A stretch of 40,666 bases of DNA, taken from a virus (Duplodnaviria > Heunggongvirae > Uroviricota > Caudoviricetes). The DNA is taken from positions 1-40,666 of IMG/VR virus record IMGVR_UViG_2563366836_000013, one strand, 5' to 3'. The notes under the pieces are model-generated. The model saw only the letters and a program-made list of their open reading frames with translations. It ran no database searches and was not told the origin of the DNA. A program made the position numbers and the translations under genes. Below are positions 5,240 to 39,741 of this stretch, in pieces; the stretch's first letter is position 1, and the number at the start of each line of letters is the position of its first letter.

Positions 5240-5602
5240 TTAACGACCTGCTGCGCGGAGTTTTCCGTCAGGTTCACCGGCAAGAGTCAGTAATTGTCCC
5301 TGGTCTTCCTGCAGAATAGTCAGGCGACCACCGCGATTGACATACATCGGCGTTTCGGTGGTGTCTTCTTCGGAAATTTTCCCGCGGTTAGTCGGGCGAA
5401 TATATGAGAGTTTGTGTTTGATTTTCACACGGTTCTCATCAAATGGTTCGATTTCCAGGTTGAGTGAGACCTTACCTTTGGTTTTCGTGTTCATCACACC
5501 GGAAGCGACTTCACTGAGAACTGCGCCGATTTTGGTTTCAAATACGCCGCCGTCCAGCTCCCCGATAAATGCCTGCACATCAGTACTGCGTTCGCTAGCC
5601 AT
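5240..5602 (-). CDS. YfdP-like hypothetical protein (120 aa)
   Basis: Start at ATG (MASERSTDVQAFIGEL...) preceded by AGGAG 8 nt upstream; the longer ORF-track version (to 5920) runs into GC-rich non-coding sequence. Confidence 0.6.
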   Translation of the reverse strand: MASERSTDVQAFIGELDGGVFETKIGAVLSEVASGVMNTKTKGKVSLNLEIEPFDENRVKIKHKLSYIRPTNRGKISEEDTTETPMYVNRGGRLTILQEDQGQLLTLAGEPDGKLRAAGR

Positions 5603-6071
5603 TTTGCTGCTCCTCATCATATCGACCCTGCAAGGCCGATTAGTTTCTCCACAAAACAGAGAAGAACACCTGTGGTGGCCGCCGCCCGGATGGATTGGGT
5701 TATGAGCCCGTCGTCCGGTGATGCTCTTCTCTGTTTTGTAAAAAGGACGGTACCAGCCGGAAGCAAGGGTACAAGCTGGTACCGCCAGGACTACACACAG
5801 CATAAAGTTGTGGTGCCGGGTGCCTCCCGGTGCCTGGCGAAGGTTGCACACCAGGCGGGTGGGTATCCACAGAAGGTCGACTGTCAGCCTCAACCTTAAC
5901 CCGCGTGCGCTGAGCCGCATTCACCACAACGCTAAGGATTCTCTCTGGTTGAAAATACTTAGCTGTTATGTGCCTGCTTTTAGCCACATCAGGCGAGGTG
6001 GACCTGGTTATTCCCCAACAACAAGGATTCGGTTAATCTGGATATCCCCAACAACAATAAGAGTATTCAAT

Positions 6072-6587
6072 GTGATCGCTGAATTAACGGCAGCAATGAC
6101 GGCTATTCGTGAAACAGCCCAGATTGCAAAACTAATGAACGAGGCAAAAACTCAAGCTGAAGTAAATGCGGCTATTGGTGAGCTGAACTCAAAGCTTGCG
6201 TCTATTCAGCGCGAATGCGTGTCTCTCGTTGAACTGGTGGGCTCTTATCAAGAAATAAATGCTTCTCTCAAAGCTAAAATTGCAGAATTCGAAAACTTTG
6301 AGGCTCAGACGGAAGGCTATATCCTTAACCAACTTGAGTCGGGTACTTTTGTATACTCGAAGGAGGTAATCGTGAACGGTGGCAGCATAACCATGCATCT
6401 TTGCCCAAAATGTTTTGGACAAAAGATAGTATCGATACTTCAACCATTCCCGGTTAGCGAAGATGAGCTTTTTCATAAAAGCAGGTGCCTCCACTGTGAA
6501 AATAAGTTTCTGATGAATAAAAATCCGGATTACGTATCGCCTCCATCCATTGAGGAGTTGTCCAGAAAACTTAACGGCAATCTGTAG
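6072..6587 (+). CDS. Orphan coiled-coil / zinc-ribbon protein, unknown function
   Basis: About 171 aa from GTG 6072 (AAGAG upstream; alternative ATG at 6096); N-terminal heptad-like helix, C-terminal CPKC-x24-CLHC; opposite strand to all flanking early-left genes; followed by a hairpin terminator. Confidence 0.5.
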   Translation: MIAELTAAMTAIRETAQIAKLMNEAKTQAEVNAAIGELNSKLASIQRECVSLVELVGSYQEINASLKAKIAEFENFEAQTEGYILNQLESGTFVYSKEVIVNGGSITMHLCPKCFGQKIVSILQPFPVSEDELFHKSRCLHCENKFLMNKNPDYVSPPSIEELSRKLNGNL

Positions 6588-6625
6588 ATTACTACTGTTG
6601 TGGATATCCAGATTGTTAAAGAGCT

Positions 6626-6650
6626 AAGCGTCCTGTAGGGCGCTTTTTTG
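6626..6650 (+). terminator. Rho-independent terminator after the orphan zinc-ribbon gene
   Basis: AAGCGTCC-TGTA-GGGCGCTT stem followed by TTTTG. Confidence 0.55.
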
Positions 6651-6734
6651 TTGCTAACGAATCATCCTGGACTTCATATGCCCCAGGCGGCTACTTCGTG
6701 GGCGTCCTGCCTGTTCGTTATCTATGATATAAAA

Positions 6735-6805
6735 TCTAACTTAACTTAGTTATTATGGCAAGAGAAAACACCAAACTTTTCTTAGTTCGGTGCCTTAGTT
6801 AGAGA
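6735..6805. promoter_or_regulatory. Putative OL operator cluster (repeated CTTAGTT half-sites) / PL region
   Basis: Several copies of ACTTAGTT / CTTAGTT just beyond the 3' end of the repressor gene; same motif recurs in the cI-cro intergenic region. Confidence 0.4.
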
Positions 6806-6814
6806 AGAGAGGCC

Positions 6815-7441
6815 TTAGAGTTCGTATTGAACTCCTTTGACTACACCAATGATAAGGCAATTACCATTGATAGGGATGTTGGGATACCGAGGATTTAATG
6901 GCACTAAAAACTTTTGAGGGCCATCGATGACTAATTTTTTTACTGTAGCTTCGTTTGTTCCATCAAGTCGAGCGATGACTATTTTTCCATGACGAGGTTC
7001 TGCATCTGGATCTACAATCACTGTTGCGCCTTCTGGTATTGTTGGGAGGCCATTAGGGTTAGTCATGGAGTCACCTTTAACCTCTAATGCAAATGAGTTA
7101 TCACCAACCTTTAATGATGTATCTACCCACTTGTCCACTTCACTAAACACTTCTGCTGCCCTGCACTCAGTAAACTGCCCAGCCTGAACCCACGATATTA
7201 CAGGAACTCTGCGCATGTTTGTGACGAGTTTGCCTTCAAACTCAGCACCATAAAGAATGTAATCTATTGACGTATTGAAGAACTTCGCTAATTTCGAAAG
7301 TGCCTCCCCACCAGGGGTATTGATGTCTTTCTCCCAGTACCCCACAGCAACGTCGCTTACTCCACAAAATTTACCCAATTCTTTCTGGGACGTTCTGGTA
7401 ACTCTTCTCAGAGCTTTTATACGCTGACCAACCGTTTCCAT
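6815..7441 (-). CDS. CI-like repressor (XRE HTH N-terminus plus LexA/S24-type autocleavage domain)
   Basis: 208 aa; N-terminal HTH (QKELGKFCGVSDVAVGYWE), C-terminal S24 peptidase-like region (GDSM...K); divergent from the cro-like gene. Confidence 0.9.
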   Translation of the reverse strand: METVGQRIKALRRVTRTSQKELGKFCGVSDVAVGYWEKDINTPGGEALSKLAKFFNTSIDYILYGAEFEGKLVTNMRRVPVISWVQAGQFTECRAAEVFSEVDKWVDTSLKVGDNSFALEVKGDSMTNPNGLPTIPEGATVIVDPDAEPRHGKIVIARLDGTNEATVKKLVIDGPQKFLVPLNPRYPNIPINGNCLIIGVVKGVQYEL

Positions 7442-7538
7442 AGGAGCACCATTTCTTTAATTACTAAGTAATCTTAGTTTTTATTGACCAAAGATAGATT
7501 TGTAATTAGCATCTAACAAAACTTAGTTTGGAGGGCGT
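7442..7538. promoter_or_regulatory. OR / PR-PRM region between repressor and cro-like gene
   Basis: Palindromes ATTACTAAGTAAT and AAACTTAGTTT (CTTAGT half-sites), a TTGACC -35-like hexamer, and GGAGG RBS before the cro-like ATG. Confidence 0.5.
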
Positions 7539-13305: not shown

Positions 13306-13326
13306 GTGTATGGAGCGCTGAGAAGT

Positions 13327-14016
13327 ATGAATCAACAAGACTTGAATTTTGTCAGAATAGAACTACGTCGTGCGCTGTTTGACTTCTCTGGGGGGACAAA
13401 AGGGCAGCTTGAGGCTTTCACTGAACACCCACCAGCAGACAAAAATGCCACTCCACGCCGTGGAATTCATCTTGTCGAACTCGAAGGTGATAAGGGACCA
13501 CGCTTTGTTAACTCGCTTTCCGCGCCATTGTACGTGCAAGAAACACGTAGCCGCCCCAGGCCAATGCCGCCGATAAAAGATGTAGAATTTGAGTCCGCGC
13601 CGTGGCGTAGGGCAGTGTCCGCGCTTAGTGGATACCAGCAGGCTTGGTTGCGGTACTGTTACGGTTTTGACCTTAACTATACGCACCAGGTGATGATGTG
13701 TGAATACGTCTGGAAGGCTTATCAGAAATGCTTGGGTGAAAACTCACTTCAGGAGCGCGTAGTAAAAAAACTAATAGGCCTAGTATGGCTTGCAGGACAG
13801 GAAATTGCTGCAACCCGAAACAATGAAACCTATAAAGACTACGCTGGTGCGGCGCTGGCCCGTATGGTTAGCGTTGACCGTTCGACATGGTTGCGCGTCT
13901 ATTCAGGCCACTGGGCTGGGTTAAAGGCCGCTTTTACCCAGCTTGATGAGTCTGCGCTGGCCATGGCTCTTGAATACTATGAGGATGAAGAAGCTCTCAA
14001 AGTGGGAGAAATATGA
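13327..14016 (+). CDS. Late-gene antiterminator Q (phage 82/21 type)
   Basis: About 229 aa from ATG (MNQQDL...); last early gene before a promoter-plus-terminator unit and the lysis genes. Confidence 0.7.
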   Translation: MNQQDLNFVRIELRRALFDFSGGTKGQLEAFTEHPPADKNATPRRGIHLVELEGDKGPRFVNSLSAPLYVQETRSRPRPMPPIKDVEFESAPWRRAVSALSGYQQAWLRYCYGFDLNYTHQVMMCEYVWKAYQKCLGENSLQERVVKKLIGLVWLAGQEIAATRNNETYKDYAGAALARMVSVDRSTWLRVYSGHWAGLKAAFTQLDESALAMALEYYEDEEALKVGEI

Positions 14017-14046: not shown

Positions 14047-14075
14047 TTGCAAAATACAACAAAATAAGCCATATT
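14047..14075 (+). promoter_or_regulatory. Candidate late promoter PR' (TTGCAA-17 bp-CATATT)
   Basis: Hexamers with 17-bp spacing just downstream of Q stop, followed about 35 nt later by a terminator, as for lambda PR'-tR'. Confidence 0.35.
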
Positions 14076-14109
14076 GGAAGCATATTTGATATGTTGCCAA
14101 AGTTTTATA

Positions 14110-14134
14110 AACCCGCCGACGAGCGGGTTTTTTG
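14110..14134 (+). terminator. tR'-like rho-independent terminator
   Basis: CCCGC-CGACGA-GCGGG hairpin followed by TTTTTT. Confidence 0.6.
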
Positions 14135-14209
14135 ATATGCGACATAACCTATAACATTTTTTATAAAATAAAATATAATTGCTTTACCATTATCCTGTGA
14201 GTTGAGCAA

Positions 14210-14995
14210 ATGTATATATTTGAATTGACCAAACCTGGCAACTGGCTTGAAAGTGAAGACAAAGAGTGGTCTTGGAAAATAGAACGGCTTTTGGACCATC
14301 TTGAATTTGCATTTTATGAGGCTAATGTTGCATTAAATTTATTTATGCAGCAGCAAAACAATCAAATAGAACAACAAGGGGTTTCGCAATTGCAATGGGA
14401 AAAAGAAATGCAAGAACGAAGAACCATCGAAACACTAGTTCGTGAGGAGTTAGGTTTATCCCCTTTTGAGAATCCTGAAAACATACAATTTGAGGTGGAC
14501 GCGAGGTTTAAACGAGAAAAGTGGAGTTCTGGTGAAATTCCACGTAGCCACAAACATTGTGTGATTTTTATTTATGCAAAATCTTTTCTTTATTCTCTTG
14601 ATACTATTGATAAATTTATAAAGGTTATTTCGAATGAACCTTATGCTCCTGAGTCGATAAAAGCCCTACACGATCAGATAGGTAAAGATTTTCCTGATCT
14701 CAGAGGGGTTAGGAATTCAACTCAACACCTCGAAGATAGGGCTCGAGGGCTTGGCGCAGGGAGAGAACCGAAGCCTTTGAATCTCCAGCCTATAAGTAAT
14801 ACCTTCATAAATGCACCGCAAGGTGCTTTGATATTAAATAATCTGAATGGCACCAAATTCGGGTCAACTATATCTGATGGTCACTATGGTGAAGTGGACA
14901 TTTCACCTGAATCGTTATCAAAAATGCAAAGTATTGTTCAGGGCGTTCTTGACTCGTTTAAGTGGGTTGGTAATCAGCAACACTTACCAAGTTAA
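14210..14995 (+). CDS. AT-rich moron protein with HEPN-like R-N-x3-H motif (candidate Abi/defence RNase)
   Basis: 261 aa; low GC compared with flanks; RNSTQH at residues 168-173 fits the HEPN Rx4-6H signature; own TATAAT -10 (14174-14179) and downstream hairpin terminator. Confidence 0.5.
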   Translation: MYIFELTKPGNWLESEDKEWSWKIERLLDHLEFAFYEANVALNLFMQQQNNQIEQQGVSQLQWEKEMQERRTIETLVREELGLSPFENPENIQFEVDARFKREKWSSGEIPRSHKHCVIFIYAKSFLYSLDTIDKFIKVISNEPYAPESIKALHDQIGKDFPDLRGVRNSTQHLEDRARGLGAGREPKPLNLQPISNTFINAPQGALILNNLNGTKFGSTISDGHYGEVDISPESLSKMQSIVQGVLDSFKWVGNQQHLPS

Positions 14996-35356: not shown

Positions 35357-36289
35357 ATGCATCGTATAGACACGAAAACCGCGCAGAAGGATAAGTTCGG
35401 CGCGGGTAAGAACGGTTTTACCCGTGGTAACCCCCAGACCGGCACACCTGCCACCGATCTGGATGATGACTACTTTGACATGTTGCAGGAAGAACTTTGT
35501 AGCGTGGTGGAGGCCTCCGGTGCCAGCCTGGAGAAGGAGCGGCACGACCAGTTGCTTACCGCGCTTCGTGCGCTGCTGTTAAGCCGCAAGAATCCGTTTG
35601 GTGATATCAAATCGGATGGCACGGTGAAAACGGCTCTCGAAAACCTTGGTTTGGGAGATGGCTCGGGGCGTTACAGCAAAACTGTCGTTTTTTCATCGTC
35701 GGGTTCATATACGTGGCCAGCTGACGTAAAACGAATTGACGTTATTCTGACTGCGGGGGGCGGCGGTGGCGGTGGATGTAACGCGGAGAACGCAAATCAG
35801 ACATTTTCAGGGGCTGGCGGAGGAGCCGGAGGTACTGTTTTTGCCACTATTTATGCGACAGACAACGATGCCGGGCCAGGAACCTATACAGTGACAATTG
35901 GCAGCGGTGGTAGTGGTGCCAATGGGGCAGGGTCTGGAAATAATGGCGGTAATAGTTCGTTCATGACATTAACTGCGCTCGGCGGCCAGGGTGGGCAATG
36001 GGGCGGCGCTACAAATACCGCTGGCGGGCGCGGTGGCTCAGGCTCTGGCGGTTATAAAACTGAACAAGGCGGAGACGGTTCAGACGGACAGGCGGGCCAG
36101 GCGCTATTAGTAGGCAATGGGGCATCGAGCTATTGGGGTGGCGGCGGCCGCGCTGGGCAACTGAGCGGTAATCCTGGAGTTTGCTCTGGCTCCGGCGGCG
36201 GGGGTGCATACGATAATAGCTATTCACACACGTCAGGACGTGGCGGGCACGGAGCTAATGGCGTGCTGGTAATTCGGGAGTACATGTAA
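35357..36289 (+). CDS. Tail fiber protein (conserved N-terminal anchor plus Gly-rich distal domain)
   Basis: 310 aa; N-terminus [22 protein letters not shown] resembles the shared side-tail-fiber N-domain; C-terminal half is Gly-rich low complexity. Confidence 0.75.
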
Positions 36290-36694
36290 ATGAATGATGT
36301 CTATGCAGTTGTTGATAATAACGTTGTTATTAATGTCATTATCTGGGACGGAATTTCTGAATGGAAACCAGAGGCTGGTAATTTAGTTCCGTTAAACGGC
36401 GATGCTGGCATCGGTTGGTCATATTCAGACGGAGTATTTACCGCGCCACCTCCCCCAGAACGCTCTCACAACGCGTTAGTTGCGGAGGCTGAGCTGCAGA
36501 AATCAGCACTACTGACCGTAGCAAATAACGCAATAGCACCGCTGCAGGATGCCGTTGATTTGGAAATGGCGACAGACGATGAACAGACGTTACTGCTGGC
36601 GTGGAAAAAATACAGGGTACTGCTGAACCGTGTTGATACCTCAGCGGCACCCGAAATAGAGTGGCCTACGCAACCGGGGGAGCGGGCCAGTTGA
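36290..36694 (+). CDS. Tail fiber assembly protein (Tfa)
   Basis: 134 aa, [21 protein letters not shown] ... APEIEWPT typical Tfa; TAAATG coupling to fiber gene. Confidence 0.8.
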
Positions 36695-36992: not shown

Positions 36993-38468
36993 CTAAAGTG
37001 AATCTATTCCATTTTTCCAAATAAGAACTTTTTTGTCTTGTATTTTATGAGTGCTATCAGGCTGCCCAAACTGTTTTATGGCCTTTTCCTCTTGCTCTAC
37101 ATCATCAGCAATTAAAAAATTAGCTCCTTTTTGGTACCATTCTTTTTTTGATAACCAATTATATGGTGTGAATCTATCACCATACGACTCAAATGGAGCT
37201 ACGTTGATATCACTAAATCCAGCAACAGATGATGCAAACCAAAATGATGCATAACCTCTTTGTAGTTTATTTTTTATTAAGAAATCTCTTAATTCTATTG
37301 TAATATCATTTTTATTAACAATGTTTTTTGTTGTTGCCATCGTTGGCAACGATAACGCAATAACGATTAATGATATTAGTAAATTTGTCTTCACTGGTAA
37401 GGAGAAAGAATTTCTAGCAATCACAATTGACATGAAAATAAACGTTGGGACTATGTATCTAATTGAGAAAAGATTTGTTGGCCTGTCACTTGAAACATAG
37501 GCAATCAACATGACTAATGATGATACAATAAGAACCTGGTCAATAAAATCAATTTCTTTAAATTTAAGAATGTTTTTATAAGATAAAAATAAGAATACAA
37601 AAATGAAAAACACCTTTATCATGGTGAATAATGAGTTAAAGCTACCTATCTCCATTCCAAACGCGTACCCACCAAAAAATTTGAATACGCCCATGATAAC
37701 AAGAGATATGTTGCTTGTTATTTGTTGAAACTCTACTATGTGAGGTTTGGTTATGCCTGGCAGGTTAAATCCACCAAGCTTAATGAATATAAATGATATG
37801 AGCTCAGCAATAAATATAGATGATATAGTGAAAACCAACAATAACAAATCATTAGTATTCAACGAATCTCTTTTCATTAGAGAAGCATACATTCTATATA
37901 TGCAAACAAAAACTATAGGTATTATAAAGGCATATTTAGATATATCATCACTAAAAACAAGCAACGATAACATAAATACATATGGAAAAAGTAATTTTAA
38001 ATCATTTTTCTTTCTGTATCTATCTATTATTAGTATGATCGCCAGCATGTAAATGTACGCACCAATATGTATACATGCTATAAGCATTATACTTGATGAG
38101 AAAACCGTTGGAATTCCAAATACAGAAAGAACAGGCCATAACGATGCCCTGCTTTTAGTATGAGAGATATATAGCGATAGTGTTACTAACATAGACATGA
38201 AAATTCCAGGCACAATATAGTACAGATTTTCATTAAATCCTATTATTTTTATCGCTATAGCATATGGTATTATTTCTGTGAAATAGAATGATACAGTTGA
38301 TAAATCCCACCCACTGAGAAAAATATTTCCTTCAGTAATATCCCTTGCCTCTCTGAATGAAGACATGACATCTGAGTTTGGAATTATGTTTTTAGCAATC
38401 ATTGAGTAAATTATTGATAATACAATAAATGTTGCCAGCCAATATAAAAGCTCAAGCTTCTTGCTCAT
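36993..38468 (-). CDS. GtrC-type serotype-specific O-antigen glucosyltransferase (polytopic membrane protein)
   Basis: 491 aa, very AT-rich, many TM helices, immediately downstream of gtrA-gtrB (ATGA-coupled). Confidence 0.8.
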
Positions 38469-39382
38469 TTTTTACCCTTAAGTACATACTTTGGACGCTG
38501 CTTAACTTCAATGTAAATTCTACCAATATACTCACCGAGCACTCCAATCCCAATTAACTGGATGCCGCCAAGAAATAATATTGATACAAGAATTGAAGGG
38601 TATCCAGGTACATTATTACCAAAAATTAATTTATCAATTATCATCCATGAACCGTATGTAAATGATATACATGCAATAAATAACCCAATATAGGTCCACA
38701 TGCGAAGCGGGAATGTTGAGAAGCTAGTGATCCCTTCCAGCGCCAAGTTCCATAGCTTCCATCCATTGAACTTTGTGCTTCCTGCAACGCGTTCTGCTCG
38801 CGCATATTCTACGACATCGGTTCGACCACCAACCCAGCTCAGCACACCCTTCATAAACAGGTTTCGTTCTGGCATGAGCTTAATGTTTTCTACTACTTCG
38901 CGAGACATGAGCCGGAAGTCGCCAACATTCTCTTCTATCTGAGGGTTGCTGATTTTGTTATGAAGTTTATAGAACCACTCAGCAGATTTACGCTTCAGCC
39001 TGCTGTCAGTGGAGCGGTCAGAGCGTTTAGCCAGAACCATATCTGCACCGGCCTGCCATTTCTCTATCAAGTGAGGAATAACTTCGATAGGGTCTTGCAG
39101 ATCAACGTCAATCGGGATAATTGCCTCCCCGGTAGCATGGTCCAGACCTGCGAACAGGGCGGGTTCTTTGCCGAAGTTACGTGTGAACGACAGCGAAACA
39201 ACAAGCGGGTCGGCAACAGCAAGCTCGTTGATAATTGATTCTGTAGCGTCTTTGCTGCCATCGTTTATGAAGACTATCTCGACTTCATGCTGCTGAAGCC
39301 CTTCAAATTCGCGCACAGTTTTATAAAAAATAGGTATCGTGGCCTCTTCGTTAAAGACCGGAACGACTAAAGAAATTTTCAT
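38465..39382 (-). CDS. gtrB: GtrB bactoprenol glucosyltransferase (GT2 family)
   Basis: 305 aa, [13 protein letters not shown]...FINDGSKD...DVDLQDP GT2 motifs and C-terminal TM helices. Confidence 0.92.
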
Positions 39383-39741
39383 TTCGCATCCCTAAAGACA
39401 ATGAACTTTGAATAGACGAAACCGCACACCAGGCTGATGGCGGAGAAGGTGACAAGAGTTATCATCGGGGGAAGTGCGCATCTATCAGCAGCCCATCCAA
39501 CAGTAGCACTGAGTGTTCCCATGAACCCGACATATAACATGTAGCGCATCGTTGTAGTTGATGCTTTGAATGTGAATTTTGCATTCGCGAAGAAGCTAAA
39601 ACTCACAGCCACAACGAAACCTGCGAAGTTTGCCAGAGCCTGATTGGTATGCGCGGCATAGATACATACACCAAAAACCACCCAGTGTATAAGTGTGTTC
39701 AGCACACCAATCGAGGTGTACCTTGCAAATATATTTAACAT
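39379..39741 (-). CDS. gtrA: GtrA flippase (bactoprenol-linked glucose translocase)
   Basis: 120 aa, four TM helices, GtrA-like; first gene of operon. Confidence 0.9.

Follow-up and report, generated by a model that had tools for sequence, protein, structure and literature searches.

A predicted STnc100/PasD-like structured RNA in the early-left leader of an SfV-like Escherichia coli prophage

The stretch of DNA analysed here (hereafter the window) comprises the 40,666 nucleotides (nt) of the IMG/VR record IMGVR_UViG_2563366836_000013 and is an SfV-like prophage of Escherichia coli. We examined a block at positions 5603–6071 that had been singled out as a GC-rich, repeat-containing non-coding region, and found that it holds, on the minus strand, a covarying structured RNA with an intrinsic terminator, lying in sense in the early-left operon's leader. 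Leftward of the block, every gene (yfdP, yfdQ, yfdR, yfdT and the xis/int side) is encoded by the minus strand. The first of them, 3' of the RNA, is yfdP (5240–5602, minus strand), as annotated by RefSeq in a 100%-identical genome. To the right lie a plus-strand gene (6072–6587; hereafter the orphan gene), a LexA-type repressor gene (6815–7441, minus strand) and a Cro-like gene. The cI-like repressor combines Peptidase_S24 with a helix-turn-helix domain, and the cro-like gene matches P22_Cro.

A promoter scan placed a leftward early promoter (pL) at 6733–6787 on the minus strand, with a -35 element TTGCCA (6761–6756) and a -10 element TAGATT (6738–6733). An operator-like motif, CTAAC-N4-CTTAGTT, overlaps it twice (6735–6751 and 6771–6787), and the same motif, as CTAA(C/G)-N4-CTTAGTT, occurs twice between the cI-like and cro-like genes (7464–7480 and 7513–7529). 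Since the overlapping motif recurs between the repressor and cro genes, the leftward promoter-like site appears to be pL with its left operator (OL). The motif copies would define OL/pL and the right operator (OR) of this e14-type immunity region. The suggestion that the block itself contains operator sites was not borne out, the real OL operators and the pL-like promoter lying about 800 bp away. With pL at about 6730 and the yfdP start at 5602, the block lies within an untranslated early-left leader of about 1.1 kb, which runs antisense through the orphan gene. No minus-strand gene was found in the window between pL and the RNA core, except for an open reading frame (ORF) antisense to the orphan gene, and no N gene is recognisable from pL up to the RNA or its terminator. 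The GC content rises to 0.535–0.565 over 5500–5999, as had been noted, against 0.39–0.47 in the flanks. This rise and the repeats of the block make sense only on the minus strand, which is the sense strand of the early-left operon.

The repeats on which the original prediction was based were all found at the positions given for them. The 15-bp inverted repeat (ACAAAACAGAGAAGA, 5651–5665; TCTTCTCTGTTTTGT, 5725–5739) grows to 18 nt at 94% (5651–5668 and 5722–5739). The 9-bp inverted repeat (GGTACCAGC and GCTGGTACC) extends to a perfect 10 nt (5748–5757 and 5775–5784), and the direct repeat TCCCCAACAACAA is exact at 6012–6024 and 6045–6057. A third inverted repeat of 9 nt, which had been missed (GTTGTGGTG, 5807–5815; CACCACAAC, 5922–5930), is the closing helix of the RNA core described below. 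By our own estimate, the chance expectation of exact 13–15-nt repeats in 470 nt is below 0.01, and the hairpins are kept in phages of Salmonella, Cronobacter and Klebsiella as well.

When both strands of the block were folded, as had been proposed, the minus strand was far more stable than its shuffles (-172.6 kcal/mol, z -6.4, 0 of 100 shuffles as stable), whereas the plus strand gave a z of -2.0. In the following, coordinates running from high to low are read on the minus strand. The predicted small RNA (sRNA) of about 190 nt begins with the first base of helix P1 and ends at the U-tract of the terminator (5930–5741), as judged from homology to sRNA-17 and a match to STnc100 (see below). Its structured multi-helix core of 124 nt (5930–5807; fold -58 kcal/mol, z -2.7) is closed by P1 (GUUGUGGUG, 5930–5922, with CACCACAAC, 5815–5807) and encloses P2 (5919–5906), P3 (GCGGGU, 5904–5899, with ACCCGC, 5860–5855), a core hairpin (5897–5873), P5 (5870–5859), P6 (CCUGGUG, 5855–5849, with CGCCAGG, 5839–5833) and P7, the invariant hairpin CCGGG-AGGCA-CCCGG (5830–5816). 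Complementarity across family variants points to a pseudoknot between AAGGUUG (5897–5891) and the P6 loop CAACCUU (5846–5840). The core is followed by a single-stranded 14-nt linker, UGCUGUGUGUAGUC (5802–5789), a candidate seed that is kept across E. coli, Salmonella and Cronobacter copies. Next comes the intrinsic terminator, T (5786–5738; -23 kcal/mol, z -4.5), a 13-pair stem GGCGGUACCAGC.../...GCUGGUACCGUC (5786–5746) followed by CUUUUUAC, to which the 9-bp inverted repeat corresponds. The 15-bp inverted repeat in turn corresponds to the hairpin H2 (5739–5651), a 22-pair stem with a structured apical part (-43.1 kcal/mol, z -6.0, 0 of 200 shuffles as stable).

No Rfam family reached its gathering score in the window. 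In the permissive scan, positions 1–206 of the 206 positions of STnc100 (RF02076) aligned to 5960–5737 of the minus strand with 42.4 bits (E-value 1.9e-7); the covariance-model scan that had been recommended thus yielded a full-length alignment, but one below the gathering score. The homologues in SfV, ST64B, sal3 and phiES15 scored 35–41 bits against the same model. The core motifs of STnc100, UGGUGAAU ... CACCGGGAGGCACCCGGCACCA, are present together with the closing helix, the 22-mer CACCGGGAGGCACCCGGCACCA being exact at 5832–5811 and GUGGUGAAU lying at 5927. The 13-pair stem and U5 of T are aligned to the terminal hairpin of the model. The promoter of its own and the position between Q and lysis genes that mark the canonical STnc100 copies sampled were not found for the window element, which lies between cI/pL and yfdP.

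At least 120 IMG/VR contigs contain the exact 22-mer; they group into 46 clusters at 80% identity, and a scan with the window-type 5' motif gave 29 further clusters at 90% identity. Canonical copies start with (A/G)UGGUGAAUCCCCCU... and are preceded, at a distance of about 7 nt, by a recognisable sigma-70 promoter. On one side of them, in the loci sampled, stand Q antiterminator genes of two families (PF06530 and PF06323), on the other holin or NanS-type esterase genes. A reading of the canonical copies as the pR' leader itself was set aside: in Stx2 phages the copy is downstream of stx2B, so that the common position is at most "between Q and lysis genes". Window-type copies start with GUGGUGAAUGCGGC..., have no adjoining promoter and always lie inside early-left operons. 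No canonical copy is present anywhere in the window. A small peptide translated from an AUG of the canonical copies was considered and rejected, no frame being conserved. Hits in genome contigs from a pattern with just 15 specified bases were discarded as chance; all of those listed but one were in unrelated taxa. The STnc100 copies of enterohaemorrhagic E. coli (EHEC) are transcribed; one has been verified by Northern blotting, and one overlaps the Hfq-bound sRNA EcOnc27/sRNA103. PasD is an sRNA of enteropathogenic E. coli found by Hfq RIL-seq (ligation and sequencing of interacting RNAs), for which common ancestry with STnc100 has recently been proposed. The core of the window element is a divergent member of this prophage STnc100/PasD superfamily.

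MAFFT alignments of the core misaligned P3 and P6 from one subgroup to another, and covariation was therefore counted in Python, at anchored, unfitted positions for P1 and P7 and by a best-complement search for P6 and the pseudoknot; loop-shuffle controls were made for the pseudoknot only. Among 105 distinct family members, P1 positions 5–7 switch between G-C/A-U and U-A/C-G, and P7 position 3 changes from G-C to U-A in seven. P6, the hairpin just 5' of P7, occurs as 50 distinct stems. In almost every variant the P6 loop is complementary to the second pseudoknot segment, close to the 5' end, although by 44 different sequence pairs, such as AAGGCUGG/UCAGCCUU, AGACUGACAAA/UUUGUCAGUCU, CAGUUAA/UUAACUG and CCAGUC/GACUGG. 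In the loop-shuffle tests, p was below 0.05 for 23 of the 44 pairs, with a Fisher combined p of 8e-20. The consensus line of Rfam STnc100 does not show the pseudoknot; it is also missing from the published RNAalifold models, but RNAalifold cannot show pseudoknots. H2 occurs with eight distinct arm pairs, 18–20 of the 22 positions being paired, and carries a compensatory change from G-C to A-U in the Salmonella copies. Compensatory changes in related prophages, which had been put forward as a check, are thus seen in P1, P7, P6 and the pseudoknot as well as in H2. That the block is a structured RNA is very probable.

These changes also bear on the possibility that the block acts as DNA, either through protein sites or as "linker" recombination joints between phage modules. 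Homology breakpoints do lie at sub-module edges, near 5787, 6001 and 6055; the T–H2 module stands before different first genes; and the CAA-rich repeats TCCCCAACAACAA are spaced 33 bp apart. Paired positions change in a compensatory way, however, the G-U pairs work only on the minus strand, and the repressor operator motif lies elsewhere. A function as a joint may coexist with the RNA, but it would leave the conserved fold unexplained. We therefore consider an explanation at the level of DNA improbable.

The original prediction also allowed for a decayed gene, and RefSeq does annotate a "frameshifted hypothetical protein" at the block in the identical genome and "ymfH" at the homologous e14 locus. 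Such a pseudogene could account for the intact 103-codon ORF ymfH of e14, of which the Prokaryotic Genome Annotation Pipeline calls the window copy a frameshifted homologue, and open frames of about 100 codons are present in four of the six frames. Longest-ORF counts did not separate coding from non-coding sequence, and codon-position and indel tests were used instead. Against the e14 ORF, substitutions are spread flatly over the three codon positions (8/14/11 in the window, 21/24/25 in ST64B and 24/25/28 in phiES15). The window and SfV have two 1-nt insertions, ST64B has several 1-nt indels, and the Salmonella and Cronobacter copies have stops in all three frames. The distance between two conserved blocks, taken modulo 3, is distributed 42/43/28 among 113 distinct family members, so that no phase is conserved. 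A conserved ORF under purifying selection, as a YmfH protein family would require, was not found in these comparisons. The open frames are a chance outcome of GC-rich sequence, and base pairs that change in a compensatory way indicate that selection acts on the structure of an RNA. The region is therefore not protein-coding and the annotated ORF is not conserved; the earlier statement that no plausible ORF covers the block was biologically right in spite of the RefSeq protein, and a ymfH pseudogene is a very remote explanation.

Pieces of the block match 3009 of 5426 complete E. coli genomes, 1610 of which carry at least 80% of it, and it is now annotated as a protein or as nothing. Recognition of an RNA gene would correct the y-ome entry, and experiments with "ymfH" clones, such as the screen for retron triggers, would have to be read differently: a "ymfH" clone has been reported to trigger the retron-Sen2 toxin (bioRxiv 10.1101/2020.06.22.160242). 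The e14 copy belongs to the e14 induction iModulon. In e14 of K-12 (L002, 3002–3313), P7 of "ymfH" is damaged (CCGGG-GGCACCCGA), and no match to STnc100 is obtained at E<0.01; to judge from this, the K-12 copy looks like a decaying RNA gene.

The arrangement around the element is constant among homologues. In SfV, ST64B, 118970_sal3 and phiES15 the order is always repressor gene, block and first early-left gene, in sense, the last being yfdP, kil, xisE or another gene. T and H2 travel together before these differing first genes (yfdP, xisE and others). The linker motif, of the form UGCUGUGU(GU)AGUC across variants, is constant in E. coli, Salmonella (ST64B and sal3) and Cronobacter (phiES15) copies while the terminator stem behind it differs completely; at least six unrelated stem sequences, each followed by at least five U, occupy the terminator position in homologues. 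A linker that stays constant ahead of a changing terminator is what one would expect if it were an sRNA seed.

A sister RNA with mapped ends is known from the same place. sRNA-17 is a 193-nt RNA of a mEp460-like prophage of E. coli K1 RS218, the ends of which were mapped by 5' and 3' rapid amplification of cDNA ends (RACE) and for which the original study reported no homologue in Rfam (Sun et al. 2020, PMC7719688). It begins GTTGTGGTGAATGCG... and ends ...GGCTGGTACCGCTCTTTT, with the start GTTGTGGTGAATGCGCAGGC in the supplementary alignment and the deletion primers (PMC7719688). We placed these ends on the window through the mEp460 and Stx2a_1447 rows of a multi-phage alignment, which stand for RS218 because their sequence is identical. 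The RACE ends coincide with the P1 start and the terminator U-tract of the sister locus, and the interval between these counts 193 nt in the mEp460/Stx2a_1447 variant. Since the sister locus yields a discrete RNA with the predicted ends, the window RNA should, by homology, extend from 5930 to about 5741 (190 nt). A Northern signal has been reported and an ArcA-regulated promoter claimed for sRNA-17, and replacement of sRNA-17 by a cat cassette raised yfdP by a log2 of 6.6 and raised yfdR too (PMC7719688). The rise of yfdP would fit an attenuating role in cis. Copies sharing only the terminator region or the P1 strand are shown as "degenerative sRNA-17" in the alignment published with sRNA-17 (PMC7719688), a class into which window-like copies would fall.

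Two further observations concern the sRNA-17 type. A hairpin, GGUCCG-UUCGAUU-CGGAC, lies about 25–45 nt upstream of the RNA start in Stx2a_1447 (L130), mEp460 (L129) and sal3 (L005). Its 7-nt loop matches the consensus of the tRNA T-loop, and it stands just upstream of the mapped 5' end; it may be a processing signal. In Stx2a_1447 (L130, 2420–2560), the P2 loop GCUGAU complements, by eye, the loop AUCAGC of a P7-like hairpin. A long-range tertiary pairing seems to have been kept in spite of the replaced interior.

The observations could be explained by the following sequence of events. Leftward transcripts would be made mainly when the repressor is off. Those reaching the block would fold into the core, and many would terminate at T, freeing the RNA of about 190 nt; its 5' end would arise by processing or from an unrecognised promoter. 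The linker and the 3' hairpin with its U-tail would form a typical Hfq-binding module and the seed of a trans-acting sRNA. T, with H2 behind it, would lower transcription into yfdP-yfdQ-yfdR...xis-int, and because T and H2 also reduce downstream transcription in this scheme, the element would be both an sRNA source and an attenuator. The long duplex of H2 is a candidate RNase III or stability element on read-through transcripts. The pseudoknotted core is conserved across genera to an extreme degree while linkers and terminators vary, which suggests that the core itself has a conserved binding partner, a host or phage factor. On balance we favour the reading that the element is an operon-embedded member of an STnc100/PasD/sRNA-17 superfamily, released at a terminator that also attenuates yfdP transcription. 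That the block yields a discrete sRNA is likely; that this RNA functions by base pairing in trans is more doubtful and is proposed tentatively.

Several facts weigh against this reading. The score of 42.4 bits is below 47, the gathering score that decides membership in STnc100. The promoter scan found no sigma-70 promoter-like minus-strand site beside the RNA (5960–6075), which leaves its 5' end unexplained, and the presumed seed has no known target, no site complementary to the linker having been found within the window either. Just four RNA-seq reads fell on sRNA-17 in LB medium (PMC7719688), although few reads are to be anticipated if transcription comes chiefly from the repressed pL. The rise of yfdP in the cat mutant may be read-through from the cassette, the mutant having kept the terminator arm. 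In Klebsiella phage Kp4882-1 the core has no terminator after it, and in orf61-type relatives the terminator lies upstream of the core; both arrangements fit a cis-acting leader better.

It is worth noting, then, that the element may be a purely cis-acting leader domain. The pseudoknotted core would bind, or act as a sensor of, RNA polymerase, Nus factors, a phage factor or a small ligand, and would control termination at T or further on, or the processing and stability of the early-left mRNA; the short RNA would be a by-product, as with lambda 6S RNA. Conservation is far higher in the core than in the presumed seed, and an invariant pseudoknotted core contrasts with a freely varying linker and terminator. 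Without exception the core lies in sense within the operon, and it has no promoter of its own; relatives with core and gene but no terminator, or with terminator, core and gene in this order, are readily accommodated. The canonical relatives, in the loci sampled, lie between Q genes of two families and holins, where terminators need to be overridden too. The long untranslated leader, which lacks a minus-strand gene before the core other than the orphan-antisense ORF, starts with a boxA-like sequence: about 100 nt into the predicted pL transcript (6645–6613), a hairpin is followed by GCUCUUUAACAA, the sole exact copy in the window, which we take to resemble rrn boxA. The boxA-like sequence is strand-specific. 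It stands upstream of just 18 of the 85 related loci, however, and was ruled out as a general partner of the RNA. The canonical copies, moreover, have constitutive promoters and precede lysis genes, so that lysogens would be killed by an antiterminator acting autonomously there. The put RNAs of HK022 and HK639 are not similar to it in sequence, and when variants that differ in their terminators were inspected, no alternative pairing of the core with the terminator was seen to be conserved. The orf61-type copy, too, lies in prophages that look lambda-like, a type presumably encoding N, both points being our assumption. We consider a purely cis-acting leader domain unlikely, while giving it more weight than the other alternatives. 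The earlier proposal of a regulatory RNA or early-left leader element holds as regards an RNA within the leader, given the strand-specific fold, the STnc100 match, the covariation and the RACE-mapped sister RNA. An antitermination role is conceivable, but the element is not of the put or nut kind.

A less probable variant of these ideas, to which we attach little weight, is that the pseudoknotted core of 120–130 nt shared by STnc100, PasD and the early-left type is a discrete functional domain, such as an aptamer or a module for RNA polymerase or a host protein, and more than a 5' scaffold for sRNAs that base-pair. sRNA-17 may then be its sister variant, in which just the closing strands and the possible long-range pairing seen by eye have been kept. 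If true, the leaders of the early-left and late operons of lambdoid phages, the two that terminator override governs, would contain a new class of cis-regulatory or decoy RNA, and the e14 "ymfH" clone that triggers retron-Sen2 would act as RNA. Under the favoured reading of an operon-embedded sRNA and attenuator, three separately described prophage sRNAs, STnc100, PasD and sRNA-17, would be joined as one superfamily, whose shared covarying pseudoknot points to a structured-domain function beyond base pairing. With a strong terminator standing first in the early-left operon and no recognisable N gene separating it from pL, the question arises of how xis and int get expressed.

Cores also occur in tandem. 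In the IMG/VR loci L023, L040, L054, L074, L079, L127 and L317 they are 267–484 nt apart, and in L317 the 3' closing strand of one core complements the 5' closing strand of the next. Because the closing strands of successive L317 cores are complementary, the long inter-core hairpins and the closing helices appear to be alternative pairings. In the window, the 3' arm of H2 with GGAGAA resembles the truncated start of a second core.

The remaining features of the block lie on either side of the RNA. The hairpin H1 (5964–5931; -11.8 kcal/mol, z -6.0) abuts the 5' strand of P1 and is conserved in SfV and e14. Upstream of it lies the module H0 (6006–5966; CCACC..GCCUGA.GUGG..AAAAG.CAGGCACAUAAC), which folds weakly (z -1.7). 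Klebsiella and Hafnia phages and other E. coli phages carry pieces of it at 84–88% identity, whether or not they have the core. On the yfdP side a small hairpin (5640–5621) and the Shine-Dalgarno sequence GAGGAG (5615–5610) precede the gene.

The two TCCCCAACAACAA copies (6012–6057, plus strand) fall outside the STnc100 match. Positions 6065–5963 are 88% identical to a stretch of Klebsiella phage Kp4882-1, in which near-identical copies of the CAA repeat precede a homologue of the 171-aa orphan gene on the same strand (L353, 979–1494). Since repeats and homologue co-occur there, the repeats belong to the upstream region or 5' untranslated region of the orphan gene and not to the RNA; they could be either protein sites or an unstructured CA-rich leader. 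The block, which had been treated as a single unit with no strand assigned, is thus a mosaic of a minus-strand RNA gene with T and H2 (5964–5651) and a separate CAA module (6012–6057). The orphan gene encodes 171 aa with a coiled coil and a CxxC...CxxC motif, and is opposed to the pL transcript. It is a real gene, as the Klebsiella phage homologue has equal length and a conserved zinc-ribbon motif; no Pfam family match and no clear promoter were found for it. Read on the plus strand, the hairpin at 6613–6645 is a terminator of the orphan gene.

Other RNA matches were seen away from the block. A sub-threshold Rfam IS009 match over the full model length (36457–36645, plus strand; 48.8 bits against a gathering score of 117, E-value 2.5e-8) lies just 3' of the ORF 35357–36289 and upstream of the minus-strand ORFs 36993–39741. 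A weak Trp_leader-like match (14069–14136, plus strand; 24.8 bits, E-value 0.68) lies in the gap between the ORFs 13306–14016 and 14210–14995. The rightward operon of SfV (L003, 5890–6078) contains adjacent matches to isrK (64 bits) and C4 antisense RNA (82 bits), a P1/P4-type RNA immunity pair; the window phage, otherwise similar to SfV, has neither isrK nor C4 antisense RNA.

Finally, the window RNA was compared with known systems. With STnc100/PasD, including EcOnc27/sRNA103 of EHEC, it shares the full-length model alignment, an identical 22-nt P7/P1 segment, the GGUGAAU start, a length of about 190–210 nt and the order of closing helix, internal hairpins, pseudoknot, single-stranded linker and intrinsic terminator. 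It differs in P2 (GCGGCUCAGCGC in the window, CCCCCUGUGCGGAGGGG in STnc100) and, from canonical copies, in having a different linker, an early-left location and no promoter of its own. With sRNA-17 it shares the slot between the repressor region and yfdP on the yfdP strand, the first 15 nt (GUUGUGGUGAAUGCG), the 3' closing strand (ACCACAAC) and, at about 95% identity, the terminator, H2 and the yfdP leader. The interior of about 110 nt is unrelated, being STnc100-like in the window, and sRNA-17 lacks the CACCGGGAGGCACCCGG hairpin.

Like put of HK022 and HK639, the element is a structured RNA in a lambdoid pL-side leader in which no N gene is recognisable from pL to the RNA, and it lies upstream of a terminator that needs to be passed. 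Identity with put was rejected, however, putL of HK022 and HK639 sharing no alignable similarity with it on inspection: the window core has 124 nt, a pseudoknot and a position about 800 nt from the promoter, whereas put has about 70 nt and two stems and follows the promoter immediately, and relatives of the core stand behind constitutive promoters ahead of lysis genes. As for lambda nut, the boxA-like GCUCUUUAACAA lies beside the hairpin 6645–6613, but the core itself is not a nut site. As in a riboswitch or attenuator, a complex conserved fold is followed by a terminator, although no conserved anti-terminator pairing was seen by inspection. Like lambda 6S RNA and StxS, finally, the window RNA would be short and would end at a terminator inside an operon, one that has to be overridden in lytic transcription. 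Those RNAs start directly at pR', whereas the window RNA begins about 800 nt downstream of pL. Such terminated leader RNAs can reportedly act in trans, as Sy and colleagues are said to have found in 2020 for StxS.

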